NCBI RefSeq assembly: GCF_000143415.4
Contig: NW_003314261.1
Location: 3,588,880-3,652,879 of the forward strand
Origin: Selaginella moellendorffii
Lineage: Eukaryota; Plantae; Lycopodiophyta
DNA: 64,000 nucleotides
Direction: 5' to 3'
Below the pieces are notes generated by a model. The model searched no databases. It was not told where the DNA came from and saw nothing but the letters and a program-made list of their open reading frames with translations. Positions 2,738 through 63,267 of the stretch are shown one piece after another; within the stretch, counting starts at the first letter, position 1; each line of letters opens with the position of its first letter. The position numbers and the translations under genes are program-made.

Positions 2738-4494
2738 TGTAAGCGACTAAATTTTCCATTCTACTTTAGTCACTTAACCACACCTCCGACCACTTGGAGG
2801 AGTCTCATTCACAACCTCCATCAGTCCAATTCAGGACTTGGGACTTGCTAGTCCCAAGAATGGCATCCATGCCACTCCACACTTGCACCTGGTCCAAGTG
2901 CTCCACGTGTCCGGTCCTGAGACCGACACCCAAAGGTACCACTGACATCTCGGCCCGTTACGCTAAGGCCATGCCCATTCACCTTTGCTGCACTAGTGGT
3001 TCAACACCACTTGCATCACCACCTCGTCTCTCCAAGACTGGGCCATGTGTCCACGAGTGGTCATCCTAAATCCACTCCTTAGCATCCTTAGGATGCCCAC
3101 AGACCTGGGGAGTTGCCTTCCCCAAAGTCCCTTTGTCAGTTCCTACCAAGTCCCTTTCTGCCCCTGGCCGTGTTTGCCAACACTGCCACTGGATCGAGGC
3201 CCACAGGCCCGACCACTAAGTCCCACGGTCCTCTGGGACTTCCTCACCACATGACTGTGTCCTTGGTCACTACCCCAGAGGACTGCTCCTCTTCCTTTCC
3301 ACAGTCTGGGCCTTTGGGACAACATTTCGGAACACCGTGGCCTTACGCGAGCCACCTAGGTACTCTCCCCACCTATCGCCTTTAGGTGCTCTAGCCATGG
3401 GCTTAGAGCGAGGTTCCATTGAGCCACGCTTGGTATCCAAGTAGGTAGTGCCACCCACACTTGGACTGGGAGCATCGGCCAGTCGATCTCCCGGGGGAAC
3501 TAGAGCCGGCTCTTGAACACTTCACCAAGCTACCCCGCTTGTCGGTCTGTGTTCACTCTAGTCTTGGACTTCCCAGTAGGCAGCTCATCACCCAACACTG
3601 GGTCTGGCCTTCCTGGGCCAAACTGGCCTTTCCTGGCCAAACTGGCTCCACTGCAGTCCTCCCCCCCTACTATACTTTTGGGGCTCACCAAACCCCCCAG
3701 GGTCTGGGAGACGAACGCTTTGGGCTTTCACCCTCTCAGGCTCCGGACTCGGACTCGGACTCGGACTCGGACTCGGACTCGGACTCGGACTCGGATTCGG
3801 ACTCGGACTCGGGCTCGGGCTCGGTCTCGGCCTCGGCCTCGGTCTCGGTCTCGGTCCCGATCTCAGTCTCGGTCTCGGTCTCGGTCCCGGTCTCGGTCTC
3901 GACTTCGGACTCCATCTCGGACTCCATCTCGGACCCCATCTCGGGTCCATCTCGGACTCCAACTCGGGTCCATCTCGGGTCCACCTCGGACTCCAACTCG
4001 GACTCCATCTCGGACTCCATCTCGGACTCCATCTCAGACTCCACTTCGGACTCCAACTCGGGTCCATCTCGGGTCCACCTCGGACTCCACTTCGGACTCC
4101 ATCTCGGACTCCACTTCGGACTCCATCTCAGACTCCACTTCGGACTCCATCTCGGACTCCACTTCGGACTCCATCTCGGACTCCACTTCGGACTCCATCT
4201 CGGACTCCATCTCGGGTCCATCTCGGACTCCACTTCGGACTCCAAGTCGAGTCCATCTCGGACACTCCCACGTGTCATGTGTTGGTCCTTTTGAGTCCCT
4301 TTTTGGAGCTTCGCCTTTTGCTCGCTTCGTGCTCGTTCCTAGAGCACTTCGTTGGGAGTTCCACTCCCGCTCTTGACTTTTCAAGTCGGAGCTTTTGGTC
4401 CAAACGTGTTACGCTCGTTTGGCTCTCGCTTCGGCCACTACCATGTGGCGCCCTTCCAGCTCCACTTTGGGGCCTAGGGATTTTGTGTCTCACA
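2738..4494 (-). repeat. A2 3' LTR (1757 bp)
   Basis: Direct repeat of 8544-10243; adjacent to PPT. Confidence 0.92.
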
Positions 4495-7400
4495 ACTCCA
4501 CCACCCATAGACGAAGTTCGATGTCCTCATCGAACGGTAAACCCTTTCATAAAGTAACACCCACATGTGTTACCATTTCCATCTTTGGCACCTAGCCAAT
4601 CTTTGTCTATGGTTTGACATCAAAGGCTCACCATGCCTTGTCCATCCTTTAAGGAGCGTAGTCTCTCCAATTTAGAGACTGATTGGACCACATGTAATGG
4701 TTCATCCTTTTATTGGTTTAGTTCTCGCCAAACCTCTTAGAGACCCTTCTCTAAGTCAATCCCACTACTCCTTCTCGAGTAGTCTCAATTTCCATCGATA
4801 TAACCTTTGCACTTTGGAACTTTGAATTTTGACTTCTTGGAGTCAATTTCTTAGGTGTCTCCGACACCTTGCCTTGCACCTTTTGTGCAACTCCACTTCC
4901 CATCCTAGGAAGTTCTCTACTCGAGGGCACCATCATCCTCTCTTCTATTTCGTGCCAAAGTTCCAGTTATCATACTTTGTGCTAGGGCTTGTTCCTGGCC
5001 CTATCATTTGGCTACCTTACCGCTCCCTCCCTTGGAGCTTCCACTTTCGCCAAATCGGAGCATTTCGGAATCCCTCCTTGGAAACACACTTCCTTTCCCG
5101 CAACTTGTTAGCGTCCAACACATTAGTGTTCCTCGCCTAACTTTGTCACTTGGATTCCTTCCAAGGGATTCCACGGCCCTATCTTGGCCACTCATCTTTT
5201 GCTCCTATCCGTTGATTGTTGCACCAAGCAACATCGAATCTCTACCTCCCTCCTTGAGGTATTGTTTCGGTTCCATAGCAAAGACTCTTCTTTGCCAAGT
5301 CCGGAGGATGTTCACCCCTAGTACGTCTCTTTAGCATCTTCTGCTATGGGCTCACGGCCCAACTTCGTGACCCTCCCATGGGTCTTTTATAGAGACTACT
5401 TTCCTCGGACTCACTATGCCATCGCACGGACATAGTTTATTTCCCTTAGGTGCTCTTCCCACTTGGTCATCACGACCAAGCCACACCACCTTAAACAGTT
5501 CAATTTCAACATTTTGAACCAGGAACTTCATTCCTTAGCCAACCAAGGACCTTGTCCTTATCTGGCCATAAGATCACCTAGTGATCTCACCTTGGCACCT
5601 TAGCAGAGTTGCCAAGAGGTACTTGGTCTTCTAGACCTCCAAGTTGTTAACTATAACCCCGGGGGCATCCCCCACACTTGGCGGTGCACCCAAGCCAGCC
5701 CTTACGGCCAAGGGTTCATAGCAACTGAGATTAGGTGTCCCCATCTCACTCACCACGACCTTGGTGCCACTTGCACCAAAGCGTTCAAGTTAGATATGCT
5801 GAGCTTTCACACTAAGCAATCTAACCGTGCATCACGACTCCGAGGCATCCCTCGCTTGGCGGTGTGCCCAAACCAGTCTCCCCACTGAGAGTCCATGACC
5901 ACCGAAATATGAGTGTCCTCATATTCCAAACCATCACCACGCCCTAGTGATTTGGGACTCGAACCCAAGCACTAGAGGGTCGGGACTCGAACCCAACCTC
6001 CGTATATGCATCTACGGACGGCATCACACGAGATGCCTGGCGTGACTCCCCACGCCGGTGCACCAACTTATTTTTAAAGCGCGCTACTGATCACAGCTTA
6101 GGAACCTAGTTCCTCCATACTGCCAAGTCCTCTCACTTGACATGTCTGTGATCATGCATGGACTCCTCCATGTTCGGCCCCATGGCCCACCCTTTTTGAA
6201 GTTATCACCTTCAACTAGGGTCTTTGTTCCCCCGACGTGCCAATCTCACTTGGCAAGTTCTCCGACCATTGTAACATGGTTCCTGCATAAGCGTGAAAGT
6301 CCTTGACCATCGACTTTCGTTCAAAGCCCTCTCTTTGAACACTCGGGAACTACTTCCCTAACCTTGATAACCTTGCCTCATGGCAAGCTTCAAGACCACG
6401 CTTCTGCTGCGCCACTCTGATTTCGCGCGTTCCATGAACCATTTACACTTGGCCTTTCTAGGTACTACGCTACCTAGAATCGTCTTTGGGAACCTTGAAG
6501 GAACTCTATCCCTCAGCTTGCTAAGGCCTCCCTTTTTGCAAGCCTTCCAAATGCCATATAGTCTAACATGGACAATTCCATATTTTAGACTCTCCATGGC
6601 ATCACGGTTGCTAGCGGCAACACCCTTGAGCCCCCACTTGATTTTCCACTCCCAGCTGGCATAACCAACCTTGGTTATGCCCTTTGATTTCTATGGTTCA
6701 GTTCCATCCCAACACTACTTGCCTTTGGCTTCACACCTTTCCTTCGGTCATTCTCCTCCAGACCAGGAGGATAGCTTTGCACTTTCTATCATGCCTTAGC
6801 AAGTATTCTTAGGGATGAACCTACCCAATAGCCCAGGGAGTGGTTCCTCAATCCGGGTATGCTCAGCTTATAATCCCACACCCTGGGGTTACATTGTTGC
6901 TTATGGGCCTTTACATGCCCATCACTAGCCTTGCCAAAATTCCATTTTTGGCTTTGTCCAACTTGGGTAGACAGTCCTCTCCTGTCTCCGCAACCTTGAA
7001 CATTTGGATAGCACCTTCTATCCACCATTCGCTAGGGACTTAGTCCCTTGGGCTTTATCCATTGCCCTCGCTACATCAAACACCACCTCTTGGTGTTCTA
7101 GAGTGTTCGGGTGTCCCAATGACGGCTTCCTTGACAATGAGTATTTCCTTTCATGACATTGACTTACTATATCGCAACATAAGCAATTTATCCCCCGTAA
7201 GGGTATATCTAACTTCTTTATACCATTAAGAAGTCTTGGGTAGTTACCTTCTACCCGCTTAACCAATTATCTTGCACCTCTTGCTTAGTTGCCCCATAGC
7301 TGTCAAGTCTTACAACTCATTGCTTAGTGCTTCCACACCTCCATCATTATCTGGGTCACCACACTCCAACCGCATGCCTTCCAGCTTAGGCCTTGCCATT

Positions 7401-8543
7401 CCCATTTCCATTGGGACTCCTTTGGCAAGGGGTCCTCATGAACCCAACAACATAGCCTCAAGGTATCACACCTTGGCACATTTGGTGTCTCCACACCATC
7501 GGCTCCACGAGCCTACCTCTATGACACTTTTTCTTTGTGTCTAAGTCTTTGCCAAGACCAATACCGCTCTTTCTCATGCCAACCATTTGTTAGCACGGCA
7601 CTATAGAGGTCACACACAACTTTGTGTCAAAGTTGTTTTCTATTTGGGAACACCTTTCCCACGACTTTTAGCACGGCACATTTTGCCATCGATGAGATAC
7701 CCTCTATTCTCATCCTTGGATCCTATGATCCCCCCCCATCCTTCGTGGGGTAAAACACACCTCAGTCCAAATGCTTCCATCAGTCCTTTTAGGACCATCC
7801 CTTGACTCTACTTGAGTCGTCTAGCAACTTTGGACTTGGTTAATCCACCGACCCATAAGGTTCTACTTGTGAGGCACTAGCTCACTGGAATACACTTCTT
7901 GCATTCCTGTCCTACTCAAAAGGACTATTTTCACAAGTGTTACTCCGACACTTGATTTTGTTCTCTGGGGGCAACCTTTGCCCCTTAGGACTACTTGTCC
8001 ATGTGATGAGAACACCAACTCATCCACTTAATACACCCCCAACTCCTGGGGTTGTTCCAGCATTTATTAGAGGTAGCCCCGGCTACCTTTTCAAGGACTT
8101 GAGACCTCTTCCGTATTTGACCTCCCACGGTCATTACTTCTGGTCTCACATTCATGAGCACCAACCTCAACTATATGAGGAAAATCTTGTGACTCCTTTA
8201 TTGTTTTGGAGTCTCTATCTTTCCCGTGATCCCAACTATAGTTATTTACCACAACTACATTAGCCAGTTTGCTAAGTCAAACGCTCATCTGGATCACATC
8301 CTCAACTCTTTGAGGAAAACCATATACTGTTCCCAAGATCCCAAAGTCGTTCCATTATTGGCCCTTTTCTATCCACCACCTCGTCTACAAGTTCACACAT
8401 GAACTGTAATGGAGAGCCATGTCTTCCCGACTTGCTACTCCTCAAGGATAGGCCCACTCCTCGGACCTTCCGATGCCAACACTAGTGGTGATATACTTGA
8501 GCACTAATAAAAGTCGGACTAAGGAACAGCTCCGATACCAAAT

Positions 8544-10243
8544 TGTAAGCGACTAAATTTTCCATTTTACTTTAGTCACTTAACCACACCTCCGACCACT
8601 TGGAGGAGTCTCATTCACAACCTCCATCAGTCCAATTCAGGACTTGGGACTTGCTAGTCCCAAGAATGGCATCCATGCCACTCCACACTTGCACCTGGTC
8701 CAAGTGCTCCACGTGTCCGGTCCTGAGACCGACACCCAAAGGTACCACTGACATCTCGGCCCGTTACGCTAAGGCCATGCCCATTCACCTTTGCTGCACT
8801 AGTGGTTCAACACCACTTGCATCACCACCTCGTCTCTCTAAGACTGGGCCATGTGTCCACGAGTGGTCATCCTAGATCCACTCCTTAGCATCCTTAGGAT
8901 GCCCACAGACCTGGGGAGTTGCCTTCCCCAAAGTCCCTTTGTCAGTTCCTACCAAGTCCCTTTCTGCCCCTGGCCGTGTTTGCCAACACTGCCACTGGAT
9001 CGAGGCCCACAGGCCCGACCACTAAGTCCCACGGTCCTCTGGGACTTCCTCACCACATGACTGTGTCCTTGGTCACTACCCCAGAGGACTGCTCCTCTTC
9101 CTTTCCACAGTCTGGGCCTTTGGGACAACATTTCGGAACACCGTGGCCTTACGCGAGCCACCTAGGTACTCTCCCCACCTATCGCCTTTAGGTGCTCTAG
9201 CCATGGGCTTAGAGCGAGGTTCCATTGAGCCACGCTTGGTATCCAAGTAGGTAGTGCCACCCACACTTGGACTGGGAGCATCGGCCAGTCGATCTCCCGG
9301 GGGAACTAGAGCCGGCTCTTGAACACTTCACCAAGCTACCCCGCTTGTCGGTCTGTGTTCACTCTAGTCTTGGACTTCCCAGTAGGCAGCTCATCACCCA
9401 ACACTGGGTCTGGCCTTCCTGGGCCAAACTGGCCTTTCCTGGCCAAACTGGCTCCACTGCAGTCCTCCCCCCCTACTATACTTTTGGGGCTCACCAAACC
9501 CCCCAGGGTCTGGGAGACGAACGCTTTGGGCTTTCACCCTCTCAGGCTCCGGACTCGGACTCGGACTCGGACTCGGACTCGGACTCGGACTCGGACTCGG
9601 ATTCGGACTCGGACTCGGGCTCGGGCTCGGTCTCGGCCTCGGCCTCGGTCTCGGTCTCGGTCCCGATCTCAGTCTCGGTCTCGGTCTCGGTCCCGGTCTC
9701 GGTCTCGACTTCGGACTCCATCTCGGACTCCATCTCGGACCCCATCTCGGGTCCATCTCGGACTCCAACTCGGGTCCACCTCGGACTCCAACTCGGACTC
9801 CATCTCGGACTCCATCTCGGCGTCCATCTCAGACTCCACTTCGGACTCCATCTCGGACTCCACTTCGGACTCCATCTCAGACTCCACTTCGGACTCCATC
9901 TCGGACTCCACTTCGGACTCCATCTCGGACTCCACTTCGGACTCCATCTCGGACTCCATCTCGGGTCCATCTCGGACTCCACTTCGGACTCCAAGTCGAG
10001 TCCATCTCGGACACTCCCACGTGTCATGTGTTGGTCCTTTTGAGTCCCTTTTTGGAGCCTCGCCTTTTGCTCGCTTCGTGCTCGTTCCTAGAGCACTTCA
10101 TTGGGAGTTCCACTCCCGCTCTTGACTTTTCAAGTCGGAGCTTTTGGTCCAAACGTGTTACGCTCGTTTGGCTCTCGCTTCGGCCACTACCATGTGGCGC
10201 CCTTCCAGCTCCACTTTGGGGCCTAGGGATTTTGTGTCTCACA
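8544..10243 (-). repeat. A2 5' LTR (1700 bp)
   Basis: Direct repeat of 2738-4494; adjacent to PBS. Confidence 0.92.
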
Positions 10244-10324
10244 GTTGTGAATGAGACTCCTCCAAGTGGTCGGAGGTGTGGTTAAGTGACTAAAGTAGAA
10301 TGGAAAAATTAGTCGCTTACAATT

Positions 10325-10336
10325 TGGTATCGGAGC
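10325..10336 (+). promoter_or_regulatory. Primer-binding site, tRNA-iMet type (A1)
   Basis: TGGTATCGGAGC 3 nt after the LTR end; same motif in A2 and B. Confidence 0.88.
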
Positions 10337-13300
10337 TGTTCCTTAGTCCGACTTTTATTGGTGCTCAAGTATATCACCACTAGTGTTGGCATCGGAAGGT
10401 CCGAGGAGTGGGCCTATCCTTGAGGAGTAGCAAGTCTGGAAGACATGGCTCTCCATTACAGTTCATGTGTGAACTTGTAGACGAGGTGGTGGATAGAAAA
10501 GGGCCAATAATGGAACGACTTTGGGATCTTGGGAACAGTGCAAGGTTTTCCTCATTGAGTTGAGGATGTGATCCGGATGAGCATTTGTCTTAGCAAATTG
10601 GCTTAGGTTGTTGTGGTAAACAACTAAAGTTGGGATCACGGGAAAGATAGAGACTCCAAAACAATAAAGGAGTCACAAGATTATCCTCATATAGTTGAGG
10701 TTAGTGCTCATGAATGTGAGACCAAAGGTAATGACCGTGGAAGGCCAAATACGGAAGAGGACTCAAGTCCTTGAAATGGTGGCCGGGGCTACCTTTAATA
10801 AATGCTGGAACAACCCAAGGAGTTGGGGGTGTATTAAGTGCATGAGTTGGTATTCTCATCACATGGACAAGTAGTCCTAAGGGGCAAAGGTTGCCCCCAG
10901 AGAACAAAATCAAGTGTCGGAGTAACACTTGTGAAAATAGTCCTTTTGAGTAGGACCGGAATGCAAGATGTGTATTCTAGTGAGCTAGTGCCTCACAAGT
11001 AGGACCTTACGGGTCGGTGGATTAACCAAGTCCAAAACTGCTAGACGACTCAAGTAGAGTCCTAAAAAGGGCTGAATGAAGCATTTGGATTGAGGTGCGT
11101 TGTACCCCACAAAGGATGGGGGGGGGATCGTATGATCCAAGGATGAGAACAGAGAGTATCTCATCGATGGCAAAATGTGCCATGCTAAAGTTATGGGAAA
11201 GGTGTTCCCAGAAGAAAACAACTTTGACATAAAGTTGTGTGTGACCTCTATGGGGCAGTGCTAACAGATGGTTGGCATGAGAAAGAGCGGTGTTGGTCTT
11301 GGCAAAGACTTAGACACGAAGGGAAATGTCATAGAGGTAGGCTCGTGGAGCCGATGGTGTGGAGACACCAAATGTGCCAAGGTGTGATACCTTGAGGCTA
11401 TGTTGGTGGGTTCATGAGAACCCCTTGCCAAAGGAATCCCAATGGAAATGGGAATGGCATAGCTTAAGCTGCAGAGCATGCAATTGGAGTGTGGTGACCC
11501 AGATAGTGATGGAGGTGTGAAAGCACCAAGCAATGAGTTGTAGGACTTGACAACTATGAGGCAACTAAGCAAGAGGTGCAAAATAACTGATTAAACGGGT
11601 AGAAGGTAGCTACCCAAGACTTCTAGTATAGGGAAGTCGGATATACCCTTACGGGGGATAAATTTCTTATGTTGCGATATAGTAAGTCAATGTCATAAAA
11701 GGAAATACTCATTGTCAAGAAAGCCATCATTGGGACACCCGAACACTCTAGAACACCAGAAGGTGGTGTTTGATATTGCGAGGGCAATGGATAAAGCCCA
11801 AGGGACTAAGTCCCTAGCGAATGATGGATAGAAGGTGCTATCCAAATGTCCAAGGTTGCGGAGACAAGAGAGGACTGTCTACCCAAGTTGGACAAAGCCA
11901 AAAATGAAATTTTGGCAAGGCTAGTGATGGGCATGTAAAGGCCCATAAGCAACAATGTAACCCCAGTGTGTGGGATTATAAGCTGAGCATACCCGGATTG
12001 AGGAACCACTCCCTGGGCTATTGGGTAGGTTCATCCCTAAGAATACTTGCTAAGGCATGATAGAAAGTGCAAAGCTATCCTCCTGGTCTGGAGGAGAATG
12101 ACCGAAGGAAAGGTGTGAAGCCAAAGGCAAGTAGTATTGGGATGGAACTGAACCATAGAAATCAAAGGGCATATCCAACAGTGGTTATGAAAGTTGGGAG
12201 TGGAGAATCAAGAGGGTGCTCGAGGATGTTGTTGCTAGCAACCGTGATGCCATGGAGAGTCTAAGATATGGAATTGTCCATGTTAGACTATATGGCAACT
12301 ATAAAGCTTGCGAAAGGGGAGGCCTTAGCAAGCTGAGGGACAGAGTTCCTTCAAGGTTCCCAAAGACGATTCTAGGTAGCGTAGTACCTAGAAAGGCCAA
12401 GTGTAAATGGTTCATGGAACGCGCGAAATCAGAGTGGCGCAGCAGAAGCGTGGTCTTGAAGCTTGCCATGAGGCAAGGTTATCAAGGTTAGGGAAGTAGT
12501 TCCCGAGTGTTCAAAGAGAGGGCTTTGAACGAAAGTCGATGGTCAAGGACTTTCACGCTTATGCAGGAACCATGTTACAATGGTCGGAGGACTTGCCAAG
12601 TGAGATTGGCACGTCGGGGGAACAAAGACCCTAGTTGAAGGTGATATCTTCAAAAAGGGTGGGCCAGGGGGCCGAGCATGGAGGAGTCCATGCATGATCA
12701 CAGACATGTCAAGTGAGAGGACTTGGCAGTGTGGAGGAACTAGGTTCCTAAGCTGTGATCTGTAGCGCGCTTTAAAAATAGGTTGGTGCACCGGCGTGGG
12801 GAGTCACGCCAGGCATCTAGTGTGATGCCGTCCGTAGATGCATATACGGAGGTTGGGTTCGAGTCCCGACCCTCTAGAGCTTGGGTTCGAGTCCCAAATC
12901 ACTAGGGCGTGGTGATGGTTTGGAATATGAGGACACTCATATTTCGGTGGTCATGGACTCTCAGTGGGGAGACTGGTTTGGGCACACCGCCAAGCGAGGG
13001 ATGCCTCGGAGTCGTGATGCACGGTTAGATTGCTTAGTGTGAAAGCTCAGCATATCTAACTTAAACACTTTGGTGCAAGTGGCACCAAGGTCGTGGTGAG
13101 TGAGATGGGGACACCTAATCTCAGTTGTTATGAACCCTTGGCCGTAAGGGCTAGCTTGGGTGCACCGCCAAGTGTGGGGGATGCCCCCGGGGTTATAGTC
13201 AACAACTTGGAGGTCTAGAAAACCAAGTACCTCTTGGCAACTCTGTTAAGGTGCCAAGGTGAGATCACTAGGTGATCTTATGGCCAGATAAAGACAAAGT

Positions 13301-14405
13301 CCTTGGTTGGCTACGGAATGAAGTTCCCGGTTCAAAATGTTGAAATTGAACTGTTTAAGGTGGTGTGGCTTGGTCGTGATGACCAAGTGGGAAGAGCACC
13401 TAAGGGAAATAAACTATGTCCGTGCGATGGCATAGTGAGTCCGAGGAAAGTAGTCTTTATAAAAGACCTATGGGAGGGTCACGAAGTTGGGCCGTGGATA
13501 GAGCCCATAGCAGAAGATGCTAAAGAGATGTACTAGGGGTGAACATCCTCCGGACTTGGCAAAGAAGAGTCTTTGCTATGGAATCGAAACAATACCTCAA
13601 GGAGGGAGGTAGAGATTCGATGTTGCTTGGTGCAACAATCAACAAATAGGAGCAAAAGATGAGTGGCCAAGATAGGGCCGTGGAATCCCTTGGAAGGAAT
13701 CCAAGTGACAAAGTTAGGCGAGGAACACTAATGTGTTGACGCTAACAAGTTGTGGGAAAGGAAGTGTGTTTCCAAGGAGGGATTTCGAAATGCTCTGATT
13801 TGGCGAAAGTGGAAGCTCCAAGGGAGGGAGCGGTAAGGTAGCCAAATGATAGGGCCATGAACAGCCCTAGCACAAAGTATGATAACTGGAACTTTGGCAC
13901 GAAATAGAAGAGAGGATGATGGTGCCCTCAAGTAGAGAACTTCCTAGGATGGGAAGTGGAGTTGCACAAAAGGTGCAAGGCAAGGTGTCGGAGACACCTA
14001 GGAAATTGACTCCAAGAAGTCAAAATTCAAAGTTCCAAAGTGCAAAGGTTATATCGATGGGAATTGAGACTACTCGAGAAGGAGTAGTGGGATTGACTTA
14101 GAGAAGGGTCTCTAAGAGGTTTAGCGAGAACTAAACCAATAAAAGGAGAGAACCACTATATGTGGTCCAATCAGTCTCTAAGTTGGAGAGACTACCCTCC
14201 TTAGAGGATATGCAAAAGGCATGGTGAGCCTTCAATGTCCAACCATTGACGAATATGGAGAAGGCATTGTGAGCCTTCAATGTCACACCATTGACAAATA
14301 TTGGCTACGTGCCAAGGATGGAAATGGTAACACATGCGGGTGTTACTTTATAAAATGGTTCACCGTTCGATGAGGACATCGAACTTCGTCTATGGGTGGT
14401 GGAGT

Positions 14406-16196
14406 TGTGAGACACAAAATCCCTAGGCCCCAAAGTGGAGCCGGAAGGGCGCCACATGGTAGTGGCCGAAGCGAGAGCCAAACGAGCGTAACACGTTTGG
14501 ACCAAAAGCTCCGACTTGAAAAGTCAAGAGCGGGAGTGGAACTCCCAACGAAGTGCTCGAGGAACGAGCACGAAGCAAGCAAAAGGCGAGGCTCCAAAAA
14601 GGGACCCAAAAGGACCAAAACATGACACGTGGGAGTGTCCAAGATGGACTCGAGTTGGAGTCCGAAGTGGAGTCCGAGATGGACCCGAGTTGGAGTCCGA
14701 AGTGGAGTCCGACATGGACCCGAGTTGGAGTCCGAAGTGGAGTCCGAGATGGACCCGAGTTGGAGTCCGAAGTGGAGTCCGAGGTGGACCCGAGATGGAC
14801 CCGAGTTGGAGTCCGAAGTGGAGTCCGAGATGGACCCGAGTTGGAGTCCGAAGTGGAGTCCGAGATGGACCCGAGATGGAGTCCGAGATGGAGTCCGAGA
14901 TGGAGTCCGAGGTGGACCCGAGATGGACCCGAAATGGAGTCCGAGATGGAGTCCGAGATGGACCCGAGATGGAGTCCAAGATGGAGTCCGAGATGGAGTC
15001 CGAGGTGGACCCGAGATGGACCCGAAATGGAGTCCGAAGTCGAGACCGAGACCGGGACCGAGACCGGGACCGAGACCGAGACCGAGACCGAGATCGGGAC
15101 CGAGACCGAGACCGAGGCCGAGGCCGAGACCGAGGCCGAGCCCGAGTCCGAGTTCGAATCCGAGTCCGAGTCCGAGTCCGAGTCCGAGTCCGGAGCCTGA
15201 GAGGGTGAAAGCCCAAAGCGTTCGTCTCCCAGACCCTGGGGGGTTTGGTGAGCTCCAAAAGTATAATAAGTGGGAGGACTGCAGTGGAGCCAGTTTGGCC
15301 AGGAAAGGCCAGTTTGGCCCAGGAAGGCCGGACCCAGTGTTGGGTGATGAGCTGCCCACTGGGAAGTCCAAGACTAGAGTGAACACGGACCGACAAGCGG
15401 GGTAGCTTGGTGAAGTGTTCAAGAGCCGGCTCTAGTTCCCCCGGGAGATCGACTGGCCAATGCTCCCAGTCCAAGTGTGGGTGGCACTACCTACTTGGAT
15501 ACCTGGTGTGGCTCAACGGAACCCGCTCTAAGCCCATGGCTAGAGCACCCAAGGGCAGAAGGCGAGGAGAGTACCCAGGTGGCTCGCGTAAGGCCACGGT
15601 GTTCCGAAATGTTGTCCCAAAGGCCCAGACTGTGGAAAGGAAGAGGAGCAGTCCTCTGGGGTAGTGACCAAGGACACAGTCGTGTGGTGAGGAAGTCCCC
15701 GAGGACTGTGGGACTTAGTGGTCGGGCCTGTGGGTCTCGATCCAGTGGCAGTGTTGGCGAACACAGCCAAGGACAGAAAGGGACTTGGTGGGGACCGGAA
15801 CAGAGATATTGGGGAAGGCTATTCCCCATGTCTGTAGGCATCCTAAGGATGTTAAAGAGTGGATCTGAGATGATCACTCATGGATGGATGACCCAGTCTT
15901 TGAGAGACGGGATTGGAATGTAGGTGGTGTTGGACCACCAGTGTGACCGAGGTAAATGGGCATGGCCTTAGCGTAACGGGCTGATATGTCGGTGGTACCT
16001 TGAGGTGTCGATCATGGGATCGGACACGTGGAGCACTTGGACCAAGTGCTAAGGTTGAGTGGCATGGATGCCATTCTTGGGGCTAGCAAGCCCCAAGTCC
16101 TGAGTTGGGCTTATGGAGGTTGTGAATGAGACTCCTCCAAGTGGTCGGAGGTGTGGTTAAGTGACTAAAGTAGAATGGAAAAATTAGTCGCTTACA
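14406..16196 (+). repeat. A1 3' LTR (1791 bp)
   Basis: tgtgagacac...gtcgcttaca, preceded by PPT atgggtggtggagt. Confidence 0.93.
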
Positions 16197-16201
16197 CACT
16201 G

Positions 16202-16635
16202 TACAAATACATGCAGCTTGTCAATCCAAATTGGAAAGGTGTATATTACAAAGTACCACCTGAAGAGGTACTTCATCATGTTCGAACTAACAATGCCATG
16301 AATTGAGATGGCACAAACTGGGGGATTATCAATTCCCAATCTAGTTGTCAAATTGGAGGATACTGATTTAGTCGATGCCAAATTCATGAGGCCTTAGCCA
16401 CTCACGATCCAAGTAGGCTGGAACAGAGGCACATGACAAGGATTCGACAACAGATTTATAGGAACAAGGATGCTTATGCACTTTGTCATATGGATTATGA
16501 GTATTCTTTCATTTCTGCTTTTTTGTCAGCACATGTAGTAACATGTTTATTGTAGCATATTGCAAGTTTGTAAGCTATAGTTTCTATGTACATGCCATTA
16601 TTTGCGGGGCAACTCATTAAATTGTAGCTTGCGAG
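16202..16635 (+). pseudogene. Transposase fragment 2 (first catalytic Asp region)
   Basis: Reads ...HDPSRLEQRHMTRIRQQIYRNKDAYALCHMD..[decayed intron]..YCKFVSYSFYVHAIICGATH*IVACE, matching the DP..R..RR.Y....LWH.D..HKL..F.IHG.IDG pattern of this integrase-core family; contains stops. Confidence 0.75.
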
Positions 16636-17782
16636 TGTAAGCCACAAATTTTTCCTTTCCAATTTGCCAGCTTACCTCGTCTATCCGTCCAACACTGCCT
16701 TGGCTTTTGCTAAGTCCCCTTGCCAAGGTTCTCGCCTATGGTACCAGCTCCTACTTGGTTTCAGCTACTCACTGCACGAGCAACGGGGTGTTAGCCATCC
16801 TTCCACGGATTCCCAAATCACTCCCAATCCCCCTCCCTGGGTTAGACTGGACTTAAGGTTCGGCTACACTCCCCGCAAGTACAAGCAGCCAAGCACACCA
16901 AGCTTCCAGGTTCCTAACATCCCTTGGTACCACAAGACTTGATCATGGGATCCTCTAAATCCCAAGTCTTGAGTGCAACACTTGCTTCAGGATGCCGGGG
17001 CGAAACACCGTGGCCTAGCAGCCCGGTATGGGTACCTCTCGCCCCCCACTTCCATCCCGAAGGAAGGCCCAAGCCCCTAGGAAGGGCGAGGACCAATGAG
17101 CCGCATGGTACTCAAGTGGGGCACCACTCCACATGAGCCGGGAGCACCGCAATCGGTTTCCCTTTCGGGAGTGGGAGCTGCTCTTGAGCACTTCCTTGGA
17201 TGGCCCCTCCGGCACCAGCCAAGTCCATGCTCACTCCCACCCAAGGCCCCTCGGTCCCAGTCTCAACCTCAAGTCAGTTTGGAAGCCCAACTGGAGAGTC
17301 CCTTCAAAACTGGTTCCTGGACCTCACTATCCCTACTATACTTTTGGAACCCCCTGCAGCCCCCCCCCCCTGGGAGACGCACGCTTTGGGCTTTCACCCC
17401 TTGACCCGTATTAGTATTTGGACTTAGTCTCTGGCTCGATCTCGGACCCGATTTCGGATCCGACTTCGGATTCGGGTTCGGACTCGATCACGGACTCGAT
17501 CTCGGACCCAATCTCGGACCCGACCTCGGACTCGACCTCGGACTCGGTCTCGGACCCGATTTCGGATCCGGACTCCGTCTCGAACTCGGTCTCGAACTCG
17601 GACTCGAACTCGGTCCCCGAGTCGGTCTCGGACTCGATTCCGGACTCTATCTCGAACTCGGTCCTAGAGTCGGTCTTGGACTCGATCCTCGACTTGGTCC
17701 CATCCGATGAACTCTTTGTCATTTCGGTCAAGTTTTTGGGGATCCTTTAGCCTACGACATCTCGGGGAGTCGGTTCCTTACA
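16636..17782 (-). repeat. B 3' LTR (1147 bp)
   Basis: About 11 substitutions plus 1 indel versus 23017-24164 (manual count). Confidence 0.95.
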
Positions 17783-17845
17783 ACTCCACCACCCATAAAA
17801 GAAGTTCGATGCCCACATCGAACGTCTCGTTTTATCCTACGACTT

Positions 17846-18090
17846 GTTGTCCATGTCTCCGGGGGCATCCCCCCACTTAGCGGTGTGCCTAAGTTAGCCT
17901 CCCCGGCCAAGAGCCCATGACAACGGAATATAGGTGTCCCTATACTCCTCACTTCACCACGCCCTAGTATAGGGTCGGGACTTGAACCCAGCCTTGCTTT
18001 ACTAGGGGGTTGGGACTCGAACCCAACCTCCGTAGAATACGTCTACGGATTCGACATCCCCGCGGGGAGTCGGGCGTAGTGCCCTACGCC
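17846..18090 (-). other. Conserved structured RNA module in the 3' UTR of B (homologues at 12793-13206 + in A1 and ~5646-6056 - in A2)
   Basis: Serial hairpins with compensatory changes between families; two GGTTCRAGTCCC T-arm/B-box motifs. Confidence 0.65.
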
Positions 18091-18567
18091 TGGTTGACCT
18101 ATCCAACCCATGCTAATTAGCTTACCTTTGGCGCGCCTTCGGGTCCCAACATATGCCACTTGCTCAACTTTGCAAATTGATATTTTTAATTGAATTTTGC
18201 ATAAGTACATAGAGTTCTGCCTTGCAGAAATTCCTCCACTAGATCTCGCGCGTTCGCTAGGTTCTCCTCCGGTTCCCATGTTGCTTCGCAGTGTGGAAAT
18301 CCTTTCCACTTCACATGGAACTCTCTCACCTCGCGTCCTTGTCGCTTGCTCTTGCGCGCATTGAGGATGGCTTCGACTTCGTATTCCTCTTCCCCTTGGA
18401 TAACCTCAGGTAAAGGTCTCACTTGGTCCTTGCGAAGTGGATCCTCAAAGTACGGCTTGAGTAAGTTCACGTGGAACACTGGGTGCATCTTCCCCATCTC
18501 TCGAGGAAGTCGGAGTCGGTAAGCCACTTTACCGATTCGAGCCTCAATCTCGTAAGGCCCCGCGAAC

Positions 18568-18619
18568 CTGCTTAAGGAACTCAAGATCAATTCATTTACA
18601 GGAATACATGCATCTTTAC
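18568..18619 (-). other. 52-nt GT-AG intron upstream of the integrase GPY motif
   Basis: CAA AG|GTAAAG...TTCCTTAAGCAG|G TTC GCG GGG CCT TAC; removal restores KLTQRFAGPY. Confidence 0.85.
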
Positions 18620-19037
18620 CTTTGGGTCAACTTTCGGCTGATCCCACTTGGTAGTCTGAGGTTCTTGGTGTTCAGCCACACCTTCTCCCCAGCTTGGAAC
18701 TCTACATCCCGACGCTTCTGGTTCGCGTATTTGGTTTGCCTTTGTTGAGCCTGTTCCAAGGAATCCCTCACTAGATTCCAAATGCTGAGTCTTTCCGCCG
18801 TGAATGCCTCCACTGTGGGCAACTCTCCATGATACTCGGCCACGCCGAGTTCCACAGGACCTTCAATAGCTCGCCCATTGATGACTTCCCATGGACTCAC
18901 CCCGATACTCGAATGTGGTGAGTTGTTATAACACATTTCCGCAAGTCCCAAATGACTTACCCAATCGGTCTGGTCTCCCGAGACATAGCATCGCAAATAA
19001 TCCTCCAGCTGCCTATTCACCCTTTCCGTTTGTCCGT

Positions 19038-19083
19038 CTGTCAAGAAGTGTTAGGGCCAACAACTTGACTCAATACCCCATAC
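19038..19083 (-). other. 46-nt GT-AG intron in the integrase core
   Basis: CAG ACA G|GTATGG...CTAAC..TTCTTGACAG|AC GGA CAA; removal restores HPQTDGQTERVN. Confidence 0.85.
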
Positions 19084-22000
19084 CTGTCTGTGGGTGATAG
19101 GCTGTGCTGAATTTCAACTTGGTGCGATACTGTTCCAGGAGAGTCCTCCAGAACCTACTGGTGAAGATCTTATCTCGATCTGAGATGATCTCTTCCGGTC
19201 TTCCCTGCACTCGAACCACTTGTTCGAAGAACAGCTTTGCCACACCTTCCGCATCCACCTCTGTTGTGGTGGGTATGAAGTGTGCCATTTTCGAAAATCG
19301 GTCCACCACCACGAATATCGCATCAAACCCCTCACTTGGGGGGAGTCCCGTGATGAAGTCCATTGTAAGACATTTCCACGGGCGATCTGGAATTGGGATG
19401 CTTTGCAACAAGCCCCCACTAGCCTTGGTCACGGCTTTTACCTGCTGACATGTTGGACATGTCTTTACATAGTCTTGGACGTCCTTAGCCATATCTGGCC
19501 AATGGTACTTCCTTTTGAGTAAGCCTATCGTCTTGGGCACTCCACCGTGTCCCGCAAGAGGTCCGTCATGACACTCTTCTAAGGCCACCTTCCTTAGTTC
19601 CCCTTCTGGAACATACACCCTCGTTTGCTTGTAATAAATGAGTCCGTTGCGTTCTGCATAGCCCGTTTTCTCTTCCGTTGGCAGCTCACCTCTCTGGTGA
19701 GCTTCCCGCGCCTCTAGATTCCTCAGCAACACTTCCTGTGCTAGACCATCGTTCTCATATGCTGTCCGCACATCGTCCCAGAAGGTTGCTGTTGCGCTGG
19801 ATATTGCCAACTTCAAGCTCGCTTTTCGACTTAGCGCATCCGCCACGATGTTGCTCTTCCCAGGCTTGTACAGAATTTCGCAATCAAACTCGGCCAAGGC
19901 ATTGGCCCACCGACCTTGTTTCCCTCTTAGGTCGGGCTGTGACAAGAAGTGTTTCGTTGCCACATTGTCCGTGTAAACCTTGAAGTGTCTCCCAAGGTAG
20001 TGTCGCCACTCCTTGAGTGCCTTGACCACCGCAAACAATTCCTTCTCATGGGCAGGCCACTTCCGTTGAGCCTTGTCCAGCTTCTTCGAGAAGAACGCTA
20101 CCGGATGGTTGTCTTGCTTCAGAACTGCGCCCAACGCAAAGTCCGAAGCATCCGTTTCTACCTCAAAGTCCTTACCAAAGTCTGGCAATGCCAATACGGG
20201 AGCCTTCCTCAACTTCCCTTTGAGGTGGACGAATGCCGTCTCGCATTCTGCTGTCCATACCATCTTCCCTTTTCCTGTTTGGTCCGTTAAGGGCAGGGCT
20301 ACTCTCGAATAGTGTCTGATAAACTTTCGATAGTAGTTGCATAGCCCCAGGAATGCCCTCAACTCATGTACATTCGATGGTCGCTCCCAATCCTGGATCG
20401 CTTGGACCTTCTCCGGGTCCACCTTGAGCCCGTCCTGGCCCACCACATGCCCAAGAAACTTTACCTCTTGTTGAGCAAAGTCACATTTGCTCTCTTTAGC
20501 ATACAGTTTGTGTTCCCTTAGTTTCTCAAACACCTTCGCCAAGTGTTCGGCATGCTCCTCTAGCGTCTCGCTATAGATCAGGATGTCGTCAATATAGACG
20601 ACCACGAAGTGATCCAGATAGGGTACAAAGATGTGGTTCATCAACGCCGAAAACGTTGCCGGCGCATTGCACAGCCCAAAGGGCATCACCAGAAACTCAA
20701 AGCTCCCATACCTCGTTCGACAAGTTGTCTTCTCGACATCTTCCTCAGCTACCCTGATCTGGTAGTATCCTGACCTTAGGTCAATCCTCGAGAAGTATTT
20801 TGCCTTTCCCAACCTATCGAACAGGTCCTCGATCCTTGGCAAAGGGTACTTGTTCTTCTTGGTATATTTGTTGAGCAACCGGTAGTCTATGCACATGCGC
20901 ATAGATCCATCTTTCTTTTTCACAAATAGCACCGGCGCCCCATACGGCGACTTGCTCAACCTAACATACCCTTTGTCCACCAACTCCTCTAGTTGGCTCT
21001 TGAGCTCCTTGAGTTCTTTTCCGTTCAATCGATAGGGTGGACGAACCACCACCTCAGCACCCTCGACTAGCTCAATCTTATGTTCTATCGGTCGTGCAGG
21101 GGGCAACCCCGCCGATAGCTCCTCTGGCATCGTATCCTGGAATTGGTCCAGCGCCTGCTGGATCACTAAAGGTACTTCTTCCGTTCTTGTCTTTTTGTCA
21201 CTCTTCACCGAGAGTAAGCACAAAAAGGCTGCCTTAGTTCCTTTAGTGAGTTGTCCTCTTGTGGACACCAGGTTTAAGCATGACTCTTTGGCCTTGCTTT
21301 GCCCCACCTTTAGATCCTGGGCCTCCACCCTAGATCTTCTTCCTTGGGCATTCGCCAATACCACAAGGTTCCTACCTTGTCCATGCAGGGCTACCACGAA
21401 CCGATTAAACCAATCCATTCCGAAGATCACGTCAAATCCCGCCATGTCCAAGACGGTGAAATCCATGTCCACTTTCCATGTCCCCACTTCGACTCTCGCT
21501 TGTCGAAGTACCTCATCGGTGCTTTGGCTACCTTGAACAAACTCTATAGTTCTTGGTTCGCCTAGCCGCTGCACCGTTAGTCCGGCTTGCCGGACTATGT
21601 CTACAGCCACAAAATTATCCGAAGCACCCGTGTTAATAAGGATCTTAACAAAGCTACCTCCGAGCTTCCCTCGGAGGGCTAGTAGATGTCGCGAACGACT
21701 CTCTACCAAAGTTGCTCGTGTAATGAGTAACTTTGAGTTAGGGACTGGATCACATACCTCATTTTGGACTTCACCCGACTTGATGGCCATATTGGCTCTG
21801 GCCTTCTTCGGGTAGGGACATTCCCTCGAAAAGTGTCCCGCTTCACCGCAGTTGTAGCATACGTTGTTTCCCACGCTGCTATATGACTTGACCTTCTTAT
21901 CCGTGGGTTTGTCTCTTTTCGCTTGACTCCCCCACGTACTTGCTCGCTGGCCACCGGATTTGCCTTTCCGGAATCCCGAGGACTCATTCTTAGAGAAACT

Positions 22001-23016
22001 CTTCTTGAATTTCCCCCTGCTATATGTTCCCCTCGGTTTGGCCCCTTTGTGAAACGTGGATCCCGACCCCGTCGTGTTCCCCTTTCGCAGGTTATCGTTG
22101 AAATGCACCTTGATGGCCGCATCCAACGCTTCCTTGTAGTTGGTCGGGTTCCAGCGCATCACCTCACCGCGAGCCCAGGTTTGCAAACCTGATATAAAGG
22201 CATGGAATGCATCCATATCCCCCATGTCCGTGACAAGTATCCTCTTTGCCATGAACCCATTCACATATTCCTAGATGGTTCCAGTCTGCTTCAGCCTACT
22301 CAGCTCATCTCTCAGATGCAGAGTGGCATTCGGAGGAACGTATGTCGCGCGGATCCTCGCCTTCATCATATCCCAGGTGGCCACCGGTCCTTCGTTGGCC
22401 TCCGTTGTTCTCCACCAAGACTTGGCATTATCTGCCAAGTATGGTTTTGCACATGGGACCTTCTCCGAGCTCGGTAACCGTAACGCTCGGAAGTAGTCCT
22501 CCATATCGTAAAACCAATCCTCCACAACCTTATAGTCGTTCACTCCCTTGAACACCGGTGGGGGCTTTGGTTTGTACTTGGGAACTGCCTGAGGGACTGA
22601 TTCCACTTCGGTCTGTTCGACCTTGTCTGGTTTTGCCTCAGTCCCTGCCGAAGGGTCTGCACCTTCTGCGCTGCCTTCATCCGCAGTCTTTCGCTTTTTC
22701 TTCCGCTTCTCGTCACGCTTTAACTTGCGTACGAGAGTCTCCAGCAGGGCATTGGTCTATGCCAACTGTCCTTCTAGCACGTCCAATCGAGCCTTGGACG
22801 ACCGAACCTCGCCACCGGACTCCTGTTTGGAAGTTTCCTCACTAGAGTCCTCCTCATGCAAGGATTCCTCATCCATAGCCTCTTGTTCAACCGGAGGCTC
22901 CAGCTCCGGCGGAGGTTCCGTCTCCGTCTGGGTTCGCTTACGCCCTGCCCTTGCCATCTCCCAGCAATCCGCCTCTATCCTTCGCTAGAACTGAGATAAA
23001 GGCTCCGATACCAAAT

Positions 23017-24164
23017 TGTAAGCCACAAATTTTTCCTTTCCAATTTGCCAGCTTACCTCGTCTATCCGTCCAACATTGCCTTGGCTTTTGCTAAGTCCCC
23101 TTGCCAAGGTTCTCGCCTATGGTACCAGCTCCTACTTGGTTTCAGCTACTCACTGCACGAGCAACGGGGTGTTAGCCATCCTTCCACGGATTCCCAAATC
23201 ACTCCCAATCCCCCTCCCCGGGTTAGACTGGACTTAAGGTTCGGCTACACTCCCCGCAAGCACAAGCAGCCAAGCACACCAAGCTTCCAGGTTCCTAACA
23301 TCCCTTGGTACCACAAGACTTGATCATGGGACCCTCTAAATCCCAAGTCTTGAGTGCAACACTTGCTTCGGGATGCCGGGGCGAAACACCGTGGCCTAGC
23401 AGCCCGGTATGGGTACCTCTCGCCCCCCACTTCCATCCCGAAGGAAGGCCCAAGCCCCTAGGAAGGGCGAGGACCAATGAGCCGCATGGTACTCAAGTGG
23501 GGCACCACTCCACATGAGCCGGGAGCACCGCAATCGGTTTCCCTTTCGGGAGTGGGAGCTGCTCTTGAGCACTTCCTTGGATGGCCCCTCCGGCACCAGC
23601 CAAGTCCATGCTCACTCCCACCCAAGGCCCCTCGGTCCCAGTCTCAACCTCAAGTCGGTTTGGAAGCCCAACTGGAGAGTCCCTTCAAAACTGGTTCCTG
23701 GACCTCACTATCCCTACTATACTTTTGGAACCCCCTGCAGCCCCCCCCCCCCTGGGAGACGCACGCTTTGGGCTTTCACCCCTTGACCCGTATTAGTATT
23801 TGGACTTAGTCTCTGGCTCGATCTCGGACCCGATTTCGGATCCGACTTCGGATTCGGGTTCGGACTCGATCACGGACTCGATCTCGGACCCAATCTCGGA
23901 CCCGACCTTGGACTTGACCTCGGACTCGGTCTCGGACCCGATTTCGGATCCGGACTCCGTCTCGAACTCGGTCTCGAACTCGGACTCGAACTCGGTCCCC
24001 GAGTCGGTCTCGGACTCGATTCCAGACTCTATCTCGAACTCGGTCCTAGAGTCGGTCTTGGACTCGATCCTCGACTTAGTCCCATCCGATGAACTCTTTG
24101 TCATTTCGGTCAAGCTTTTGGGGATCCTTTAGCCTACGACATCTCGGGGAGTCGGTTCCTTACA
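23017..24164 (-). repeat. B 5' LTR (1148 bp)
   Basis: Direct repeat of 16636-17782, TG...CA ends. Confidence 0.95.
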
Positions 24165-24169
24165 GCGAG

Positions 24170-26599: not shown

Positions 26600-27702
26600 T
26601 GTAAGCGACTAATTTTTCCATTCTACTTTAGTCACTTAACCACACCTCCAACCCCTTAGAGGAGTCTCATTCACAACCTCCATAAGTCCAATTTAGGACT
26701 TGGGACTTGCTAGCCCCAAGAATGGCATCCATGCCACCCCACACTTGCACCTGGTCCAAGTGCTCCACGTGTCCGGTCCCAAGACCGACACCCAAAGGTA
26801 CCACTGACACCTCGGCCCGTTACGCTAAGGCCATGCCCATTCACCTTTGCTACACTAGTGATCCAATACCACTTGCATCACCATCCCGTCTCTCCAAGAC
26901 TGGGCCATCTGTCCATGAGTGGTCATCCTGGATCCACTCCTTAGCATCCTTAGGATGCCTACAGACCTGGGGAATCGCCTTCCCGAAAGTCCCTTTGTCA
27001 GTTCCTACCAAGTCCCTTTCTGCCCCTGGCCGTGTTTGCCAACACTGCCACTGGATCGAGGCCCACAAGCCCGACCACTAAGTCCCATGGTCCTCTAGGA
27101 CTTCCTCACCACACGACTGTGTCCTTGGTCACTACCCCAGAGGACTGCTCCTCTTCCTTTCCACAGTCTAGGCCTTTGGGACAACATTTTGGAACACCGT
27201 GGCCTTACGCGAGCCACCTGGGTACTCTCCCTGCCTTTCGCCTTTAGGTGCTCTAGCCATGGGCTTAGAGCGAGGTTCCGTTGAGCCACGCCTGGTATCC
27301 AAGTAGGTAGTGCCACCCACACTTGGACTGGGAGCATTGGCCAGTCGATCTCCCGGGGGAACTAGAGCTGGCTCTTGAACACTTCACCAAGCTACCCCGC
27401 TTGTCGGTCCGTATTCACTCTAGTCTTGGACTTCCCAGTGGTCAGTTCCTCACCCAACACTGGGTCTGGCCTTCCTGGGCCAAACTGGCCTTTCCTAGCC
27501 AAACTGGCTCCACTGCAGTCCTCCCCCTACTATACTTTTGGAGCTCACCAAACCCCCCAGGGTCTGGGAGACGAACGCTTTGGGCTTTCACCCTCTCAGG
27601 CTCCGGACTCGGACTCGGACTCGGACTCGGACTCAGACTCGGACTCGGATTCAGATTCGGACTCGGACTCGGGCTCGGGCTCGGTCTCGGTCTCGGTCCC
27701 GA

Positions 27703-27737
<35 letters not shown>

Positions 27738-28350
27738 ACTTCGGACTCCATCTCGGACTCCATCTCGGACTCCATCTCGGACTCCATCTCGGACTCCATC
27801 TCGGGTCCATCTCGGACTCCATCTCGGACTCCATCTCGGGTCCATCTCGGACTCCATCTCGGACTCCATTTCGGGTCCATCTCGGACTCCATCTCGGACT
27901 CCATTTCGGGTCCATCTCGGGTCCATCTCGGACTCCATCTCGGACTCCATCTCGGACTCCATCTCGGGTCCATCTCGGACTCCATCTCGGACTCCATCTC
28001 GGGTCCATCTCGGGTCCATCTCGGACTCCATCTCGGACTCCATTTCGGGTCCATCTCGGGTCCATCTCGGACTCCACTTCGGACTCCAACTCGGGTCCAC
28101 CTCGGACTCCATCTTGGACACTCCCACGTGTCATGTGTTGGTCCATTTGGGTCCCTTTTTGGAGCCTCGCCTTTTGCTCGCTTCGTGCTCGTTCCTTGAG
28201 CACTTCGTTGGGAGTTCCACTCCCGCTCTTGACTTTTCAAGTCGGAGCTTTTGGTCCAAACGTGTTACGCTCGTTTGGCTCTCGCTTCGGCCACTACCAT
28301 GTGGCGCCCTTCCGGCTCCACTTTGGGGCCTAGGGATTTTGTGTCTCACA
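26600..28350 (-). mobile_element. Solo LTR of family A (1751 bp)
   Basis: tgtaagcgac...gtgtctcaca flanked by TSD CAACC (26595-26599, 28351-28355); no PBS or PPT. Confidence 0.93.
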
Positions 28351-62380: not shown

Positions 62381-63267
62381 TGCAAAAACCCTAAACGGTT
62401 AAAAAATTAAAGAAGACTTTTAAAGGCAACCCTACATTATTTATGTGGCCCTAAAATGCCCTATCCCACATGCCCAAGCTCAACGAGTTTCTTCGATATA
62501 TAAGAGCTCGGTAGAGAGGGTATGGTATAAGCGCGCCCGCTTCAAGGTGGGAGTCAGCACGGTGTTATCCTCGGAGGGGGATTGTGACGTGGCTGATAAT
62601 GCGGGGCACATCGCGTCAGGCGGGTAACCGAGCATCGCTATAGCTCCAGCTCTTGCCAGTGAAGGGATCACGCGCTCTTTTTCGCACCGCGATTTTGATG
62701 ATTTGTTTCACTTGCGTGATTGGAAATCTATTAAATTCTCACGAGTTTGATGGCGTCATGGAATTGATTGAAATGGTGCCTCGCTCGCATATCGAGCGCC
62801 CACAATCAAGGATCTTCTCTCTTCCGAGCATTCGAATTCCAAGGGTTTACAGGTTTTCTCCTCGAGGCATCCAAAAGATACCGTGGTTCAGGCATAAAAT
62901 TGTTTGCAGGAAAATCGAGAAATCAAGATCAACGGCTATCAAAGAGCTTGTTTAGATTGAGGCCAGCGTACGTGGTTCTACATTCGTCTAGATTATGAGA
63001 TGCAAAAAAATATTACGAGGATGATCGCAACACGTAAAACATTCGTGTCTTCTTAACAACTCTTCCATCCCAGCCTGGCTTCTTCCGATCTCATCAATGA
63101 AGCTCTTTGTCGATTGAGACGCTTAGGCCTGGTGGATCGAGTCCAGCAAGTTTAACCGCCTTAGACCACCTTTTCAGCGATTGCGACCATTCACTGGGGA
63201 GATTCTTTGGTTACAAATGAATATCTAGAAAACTCGATGGTTTGTGTGTAGAAAATGTTGGTGGCAA

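Follow-up and report, generated by a model that had tools for sequence, protein, structure and literature searches.

Two predicted spliceosomal introns interrupt the integrase of SM1-Galahad, a chromovirus of Selaginella moellendorffii

Two short inserts that interrupt the integrase of the LTR retrotransposon SM1-Galahad are, in our best reading, host-type spliceosomal introns carried by many copies of the family, while the copy analysed here is itself dead and the unspliced RNA would be the form that is packaged; we give this reading a probability of roughly 0.7. Reverse transcription should purge sense-strand introns. The copy lies in a 64,000-nucleotide stretch of the Selaginella moellendorffii genome, hereafter the window, for which a preliminary description had already proposed spliceosomal introns in the integrase. 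That proposal is upheld insofar as the inserts behave like family-wide introns (GT..AG ends, fit to the reading frame, presence in other copies), whereas the direct evidence for a splice junction comes down to a single RNA read that appears to skip one of them.

The element spans 16636-24164 on the minus strand (7529 nt; Table 1). Its two LTRs are 98.96% identical, differing by 11 substitutions and one indel, and the duplicated target site (TSD) of 5 bp, GCGAG, is intact on both sides, in agreement with the ~99% LTR identity and intact TSD first reported. Taking the plant substitution rate as 1.3e-8 or 6.5e-9 per site per year, this LTR divergence corresponds to an age of 0.4-0.7 million years. 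Pfam places Gag, CCHC, protease, RT, RNase H, integrase H2C2 and rve domains in one frame, and SH3_Tf2-1 and the chromodomain in another. Exon 1 encodes Gag, CCHC, protease, RT, RNase H, the integrase H2C2 domain and the first two catalytic Asp residues, and together with the beginning of insert 1 it constitutes the published 3885-bp ORF1. The features of a Ty3/gypsy chromovirus are all present: the domain order Gag-PR-RT-RH-IN along ORF1 (Pfam), a chromodomain (PF00385, E 1.7e-16) at the integrase C-terminus in exon 3, and TG..CA LTRs with a primer-binding site (PBS), a polypurine tract (PPT) and a 5-bp TSD. Ty3 Gag-Pol (PDB 7q5b) is the best solved-structure match to ORF1. Rfam returned zero matches within the element; a partial match to signal recognition particle RNA (RF00017, 77.6 bits) was found in the window at 62530-62676 (+).

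Table 1. Features of the SM1-Galahad copy and lesions in its coding region, in window coordinates
Feature	Position	Strand	Domain source
TSD GCGAG, left copy	16631..16635		
3' LTR, 1147 nt, with poly-G tract and short tandem repeats	16636..17782	-	
Polypurine tract	17783..17796	-	
Exon 3: integrase end, SH3_Tf2-1 (GPY/F), chromodomain	18186..18567	-	Pfam PF24626, PF00385
ORF3 of 309 bp (as published), inside exon 3	18189-18497	-	
Insert 2, predicted intron, 52 nt, GT..AG	18568..18619	-	
Exon 2, 418 nt: catalytic Glu (GQTER) and remaining integrase core; includes published short ORF2	18620..19037	-	
Insert 1, predicted intron, 46 nt, GT..AG	19038..19083	-	
Exon 1: gag-pol as one frame	19084..22957	-	Pfam
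Protease active-site codon, catalytic Asp absent, window copy	21632..21634	-	
In-frame gag stop, window copy	22271..22273	-	
In-frame gag stop, window copy	22757..22759	-	
Primer-binding site, 13 nt, tRNA-Met type according to PMC3350952	23001..23013	-	
5' LTR, 1148 nt	23017..24164	-	
TSD GCGAG, right copy	24165..24169		

We identify the element as SM1-Galahad because it matches the published description of that family in host, length, LTR, PBS and ORF sizes. The window element measures 7529 nt against ~7500 nt, its LTRs 1147/1148 nt against 1076/1146 nt, and its PBS 13 nt in both cases; its ORFs are 3885, 318 and 309 bp long, against 3885, 316 and 309 bp in the consensus. Poly-G LTRs of ~1146 nt and a chromodomain in the last short ORF are further points of agreement (PMC3350952). 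SM1-Galahad is described as a 7.5-kb family of hundreds of copies sharing 95% identity, and its consensus has a 3885-bp ORF without a chromodomain, followed by the two short ORFs (Novikov et al. 2012, PMC3350952). The authors found no intact copy, and the placement of the family in the Galadriel clade is theirs (PMC3350952); some Selaginella chromoviruses are left unclassified in PMC6317226.

The window copy is dead. An autonomous element has an open gag-pol and intact catalytic motifs; in this copy gag is interrupted by two in-frame stops and the protease motif lacks its Asp, so that Gag-PR-RT-RH cannot be encoded. Any model of splicing thus concerns working members of the family and not this locus. 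The preliminary description had held that the unspliced RNA encodes Gag-PR-RT-RH plus a truncated integrase: the truncation before the catalytic Glu stands, but the Gag-PR-RT-RH half does not apply to the window copy, whose gag stops and protease lesion had both been missed.

Both inserts were found on the minus strand exactly where they had been placed, with GT..AG ends. Each is 3n+1 nucleotides long and contains stop codons, and ORF1 terminates within insert 1, at 19070-19072. This stop precedes the catalytic Glu, and a retained insert 1 consequently ends the protein before that residue. The branch-point consensus is YTRAY: insert 1 contains CTAAC with its A at position 33, merely 13 nt before the acceptor, and insert 2 a YTRAY-like motif (TTGAT), also with its A at position 33. 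Insert 2 has AG|GT at both ends and finishes in a tandem acceptor, AAGCAG (18568-18573, -), where use of the upstream AG adds one codon. The GC content of the inserts is 0.46 (insert 1) and 0.35 (insert 2) against 0.50-0.53 in the exons, and their T content 0.33-0.35 against 0.18-0.22. As for length, the inserts had been assigned to the same size class as the host introns of the window; they lie near the genome-wide median of 59 nt (PMC3729371 Table 3), but the three definable introns of the window, at 75, 76 and 81 nt, are all longer; 46 nt is short even among S. moellendorffii introns. The commonest alternative splicing event in this species is intron retention (PMC5310277). The 81-nt intron, at 47501-47581 (-) in a sugar transporter gene, is in frame and stop-free, so that the unspliced frame stays open; the window also contains a GH3 gene 99% identical to S. 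moellendorffii SELMODRAFT_87623.

Precise removal of the inserts restores a conserved integrase frame, as had been claimed. Native ORF1 aligns with Ty3 Gag-Pol (PDB 7q5b) as far as residue 1267 (HPQT), and exon 2 takes up the alignment at residue 1269, one codon apart. We then aligned homologous proteins (269 supplied, 266 matched) to the rejoined sequence with an X at each break: all 257 homologues spanning break 1 are gapless within 4 residues of it, as are 212 of the 228 spanning break 2. The residue opposite the first X is Asp in 244/257 homologues, and that opposite the second is Arg or Lys in 199/228. Once the inserts are removed, the spacing between the catalytic D and E comes to 35. 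A U2-type intron is characterised by GT..AG ends that, when used, bring back a conserved frame, and both inserts have such ends.

Random host DNA placed at these two sites would show GT..AG at both with a chance of 0.0057 x 0.0065 = 3.7e-5. This figure is too favourable if a target duplication accompanied the origin of the inserts, because three of the four terminal dinucleotides come from the direct repeats at the insert ends (GACAG, AGGT); most of these ends would then need no selection for splicing. When the inserts were examined as possible introners, the terminal direct repeats measured 4-5 nt, and a second copy of either insert was absent from the window. Neither insert folds better than its shuffled counterparts (z 1.20 for insert 1, 0.16 for insert 2), and a hairpin in insert 1 acting as a retention switch was rejected on these values. 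Ribosomal recoding was likewise rejected, in view of the length of the inserts (46 and 52 nt), their several stops, and a one-base-longer variant of insert 1, which an intron would tolerate and a recoding signal would not.

The inserts are features of the family and not private damage, because the multi-copy SM1-Galahad consensus is broken into the same three ORFs. The DNA contigs point the same way for insert 1. In a DNA run (X1), possibly the sample behind the window sequence, 60,704 contigs were aligned; at three positions within insert 1, letters unlike those of the window copy occur in 43, 30 and 55 contigs and make up at least 97% of the local depth, and many other copies must therefore have insert 1. 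Among these insert-1 variants, one preserves the stop as a stop and one moves the branch motif nearer to its consensus. Nine contigs, judged by eye, carry the form that is one base longer, with its GT kept. The 175-nt bins that contain the inserts are not depleted in this run (883k against 1,007k and 862k; 1,041k against 1,010k and 924k), and no joint falls at an insert among the 15 of 62 joints listed (depth 214-356). With 40 of 469 variant rows and 15 of 62 joints listed, and the counting itself incomplete, the numbers of variants and joints are lower bounds.

The preliminary description had named as its undoing other family copies without the inserts; what we found instead is a split published consensus and a diverged insert 1 in 30-55 contigs. 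That the inserts are post-insertion damage private to this copy, or an assembly artefact, is accordingly scarcely credible. The window copy does have other private lesions, but the consensus shows the same ORF lengths, the ORF2/ORF3 split rules out this origin for insert 2, and the diverged contigs rule it out for insert 1.

A second feature of the same DNA run leaves room for intronless copies. Depth at the three insert-1 rows is 134k-239k, against 318k-805k at flanking rows (half to one sixth), which could mean that many copies are without insert 1; a similar dip is seen at 18081-18104, where variants cluster too. Given this lower depth and the partial listing of joints, intronless copies can exist as a minority.

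Patterns of divergence suggest selection on the integrase despite its being split. Of the 40 variant rows listed, 32 are exonic and were retained, five in the 3' untranslated region and three in insert 1 being omitted. Between the window copy and the family, 9 of 11 integrase differences are synonymous (3.4 expected, P=0.0008); for the 5 that lie downstream of insert 1 the number is 4 (1.55 expected, P=0.035), and elsewhere in gag-pol it is 12 of 21. On this comparison of sequences, in a small sample of 11 rows, the split integrase is likely under selection. Since their divergence is mostly silent, the integrase exons are likely translated, and their translation requires splicing; an integrase dead in cis would not be expected to show a silent bias.

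SM1-Galahad is almost silent in the three raw RNA runs X22-X24, which yielded 10, 2 and 0 reads with about 12 in 100 of each run sampled. Six further runs, presumed to be RNA, contain 0.17-0.32 of the sequence words searched, which carries no weight for splicing; no run on record as RNA was listed in that search. Reads across the predicted junctions had been put forward as one check: no splice joint is listed among these 12 reads from X22-X24, listing being dependent on 3 reads, and one pair in X22 appears to skip insert 1. This pair places 80 + 68 bases in two adjacent bins and covers none of the three listed insert-1 positions; its first mate lies on the plus strand, which would make it sense RNA given a library of the usual strandedness. 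Of the 156 placements compatible with the bins, none agrees with the rows without a skip; skipping insert 1 brings agreement for 6-120 of them, according to the end margin chosen. The calculation presumes that the depth table counts every covering read, and the pair does not fix the position of the joint. By this arithmetic the pair would skip insert 1, and the transcript of an intronless copy would fit it too. For insert 2, no skipping read was found among the 12 reads.

We also considered whether the inserts are never spliced, having killed the integrase of a founder whose descendants were mobilised by another integrase, for example that of SM2-Galahad. An intact, high-copy sister family of this name does exist (PMC3350952), a target duplication would yield most of the GT/AG ends free, and there are zero splice joints among those listed. 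Against this stand the synonymous bias in the integrase exons on either side of the breaks, the X22 read that cannot run continuously through insert 1, and the intron size and branch-like motifs of both inserts. We regard this scenario as very improbable.

The surroundings of the element contain relatives of another kind. Two related non-coding LTR elements, at 2738-10243 (-) and 10244-16196 (+), have LTRs of ~1.75 kb and internal regions of ~4 kb, are 92.6% alike, and are nested in a further LTR of their own family. Further LTRs of this family lie at 936-2737 with 16124-16196 (split by the nested elements) and at 26600-28350 (solo), and carry long arrays of 6- to 12-nt repeats akin to those of the SM1-Galahad LTR. 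Comparison of the two elements with 269 homologues gave no match to gag or pol below E 0.01, and they are likely non-autonomous riders. They share the PBS, PPT and LTR ends of SM1-Galahad, which indicates that riding in trans occurs in its vicinity. A 186-nt stretch of the SM1-Galahad 3' untranslated region (17864-18049) is ~74% identical to their internal region (5844-6018, 12831-13005), with second copies at 5636-5761 and 13088-13213; it is a candidate packaging or dimerisation signal.

Riding in trans is also central to the possibility that a minority of intronless SM1 masters supplies the integrase and that the majority, which bears the introns, depends on them in whole or in part. The X1 contigs are compatible with such masters, with 15 of 62 joints listed, short contigs that may miss joints and the lower depth in insert 1; the X22 pair could stem from such a copy; and the adjacent non-coding elements, with the same PBS, PPT and LTR ends, show that trans riding takes place in this clan. 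The silent-site bias, however, falls on the lineage of an intron-bearing copy, and Novikov et al., with hundreds of copies before them, came across none that was intact and derived a split consensus (PMC3350952). Intronless masters are in our view improbable.

Our preferred reading, that the inserts are introns of the family, can be set out as the following model. In working members, the host spliceosome would remove both inserts from part of the transcripts, and the spliced mRNA would yield a complete Gag-Pol, including the D,D-35-E triad, GPY/F and the chromodomain. Where intron 1 is retained, the product would instead be Gag-PR-RT-RH followed by an integrase stub that lacks the catalytic Glu. 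Packaging and reverse transcription would act on the unspliced form, and on this proposal daughter copies keep both introns because it is the unspliced RNA that enters particles. By analogy with BARE1, the two pools would most likely be kept apart, one unspliced and replicated, the other spliced and translated. With gag and pol in a single frame, partial splicing would also keep integrase below Gag and RT. In its strictest form the model dispenses with any intronless master: integrase would be made only after the core has been spliced, unspliced RNA would be packaged despite a difference of 98 nt, and splicing efficiency would set the amount of integrase per particle. We hold this strict form tentatively, at a little under even odds.

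The same facts can be read without any purpose for the introns, and it is on purpose that this alternative differs from our best explanation. The introns would be real but mere passengers, gained once in a founder and spliced inefficiently, persisting through enough unspliced, packaged RNA, with the integrase dose unregulated. The terminal direct repeats (GACAG, AGGT) fit a single gain by insertion or break repair, neither insert is specially structured (z 1.20, 0.16), and SM2-Galahad, the sister family, thrives on a single uninterrupted ORF (PMC3350952). It is harder to see how two independent introns would then have been retained over hundreds of rounds of reverse transcription; a daughter without introns would obtain integrase from all of its RNA and should, we reason, spread unless excluded. 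Passenger introns are possible, though we find them rather doubtful.

If introns that matter to the integrase are indeed what SM1-Galahad carries, a family with hundreds of copies and two integrase introns of ~50 nt must sort near-identical RNAs into translated and packaged pools, and no large deletion is available by which the spliced RNA could drop a packaging signal. This would make SM1-Galahad a clean natural system for asking how retroelements choose the RNA that they package, and splicing would be a new answer to the question of how a single-frame gag-pol limits its integrase. A published family would also be reinterpreted, in that its 'broken' three-ORF consensus would be the form that works. 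This suggests that, in genomes with small introns, elements now classed as defective merit re-examination.

Protein searches returned no close relative from another species, with a best identity of ~50% over the region and 49% among representatives. For exon 2, these searches gave no match of near its length. None of four exact look-ups succeeded, and the Atlas offered generic clusters only. Locus scans gave nothing in one case, 11 fragments with 45-59% identity over short stretches in another, and three distant elements in another, whose integrase is continuous in one frame. At several metagenome loci (L001-L004, L006-L008, L010-L011), short integrase fragments match next to each other on opposite strands, in the manner of an inverted duplication.

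The family itself is known, and its introns, which are likely real, were previously unrecognised. Introns and splicing go unmentioned in PMC3350952, where the three SM1-Galahad ORFs are given without explanation, and within the literature searched, which took in few subscription journals and no Repbase, we found introns described neither within the integrase of an LTR element nor in SM1-Galahad. The nearest comparison is SM2-Galahad, a sister family in the same genome with the same domain order and hundreds of copies; it differs in having one continuous 4731-bp ORF (1577 aa) through integrase and chromodomain, with no inserts implied (PMC3350952). The three SM1 exons sum, by their coordinates, to 1557 codons.

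Penelope-like elements form a separate retroelement order, not known to have LTRs or a DDE integrase. They resemble SM1-Galahad in keeping sense-strand spliceosomal introns through reverse transcription (PMC4209133). Plant LTR elements are generally intronless, save Ogre and EVADE, according to a 2025 review (PMC12786077). Ogre, a Ty3/gypsy element of legumes, provides a precedent for splicing being required to express pol (PMC6317226). The Ty1/copia elements BARE1 and EVADE share with SM1-Galahad a small intron in a single-ORF element, and have distinct translated and packaged RNA pools (PMC3735527, PMC12786077); BARE1 is reported to package its RNA unspliced, and no DNA copy corresponding to the spliced form was detected (PMC3735527). 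The direction of the effect is reversed, however: splicing in BARE1 and EVADE destroys pol and gives Gag only (PMC3735527, PMC12786077), whereas in SM1-Galahad it would complete pol.
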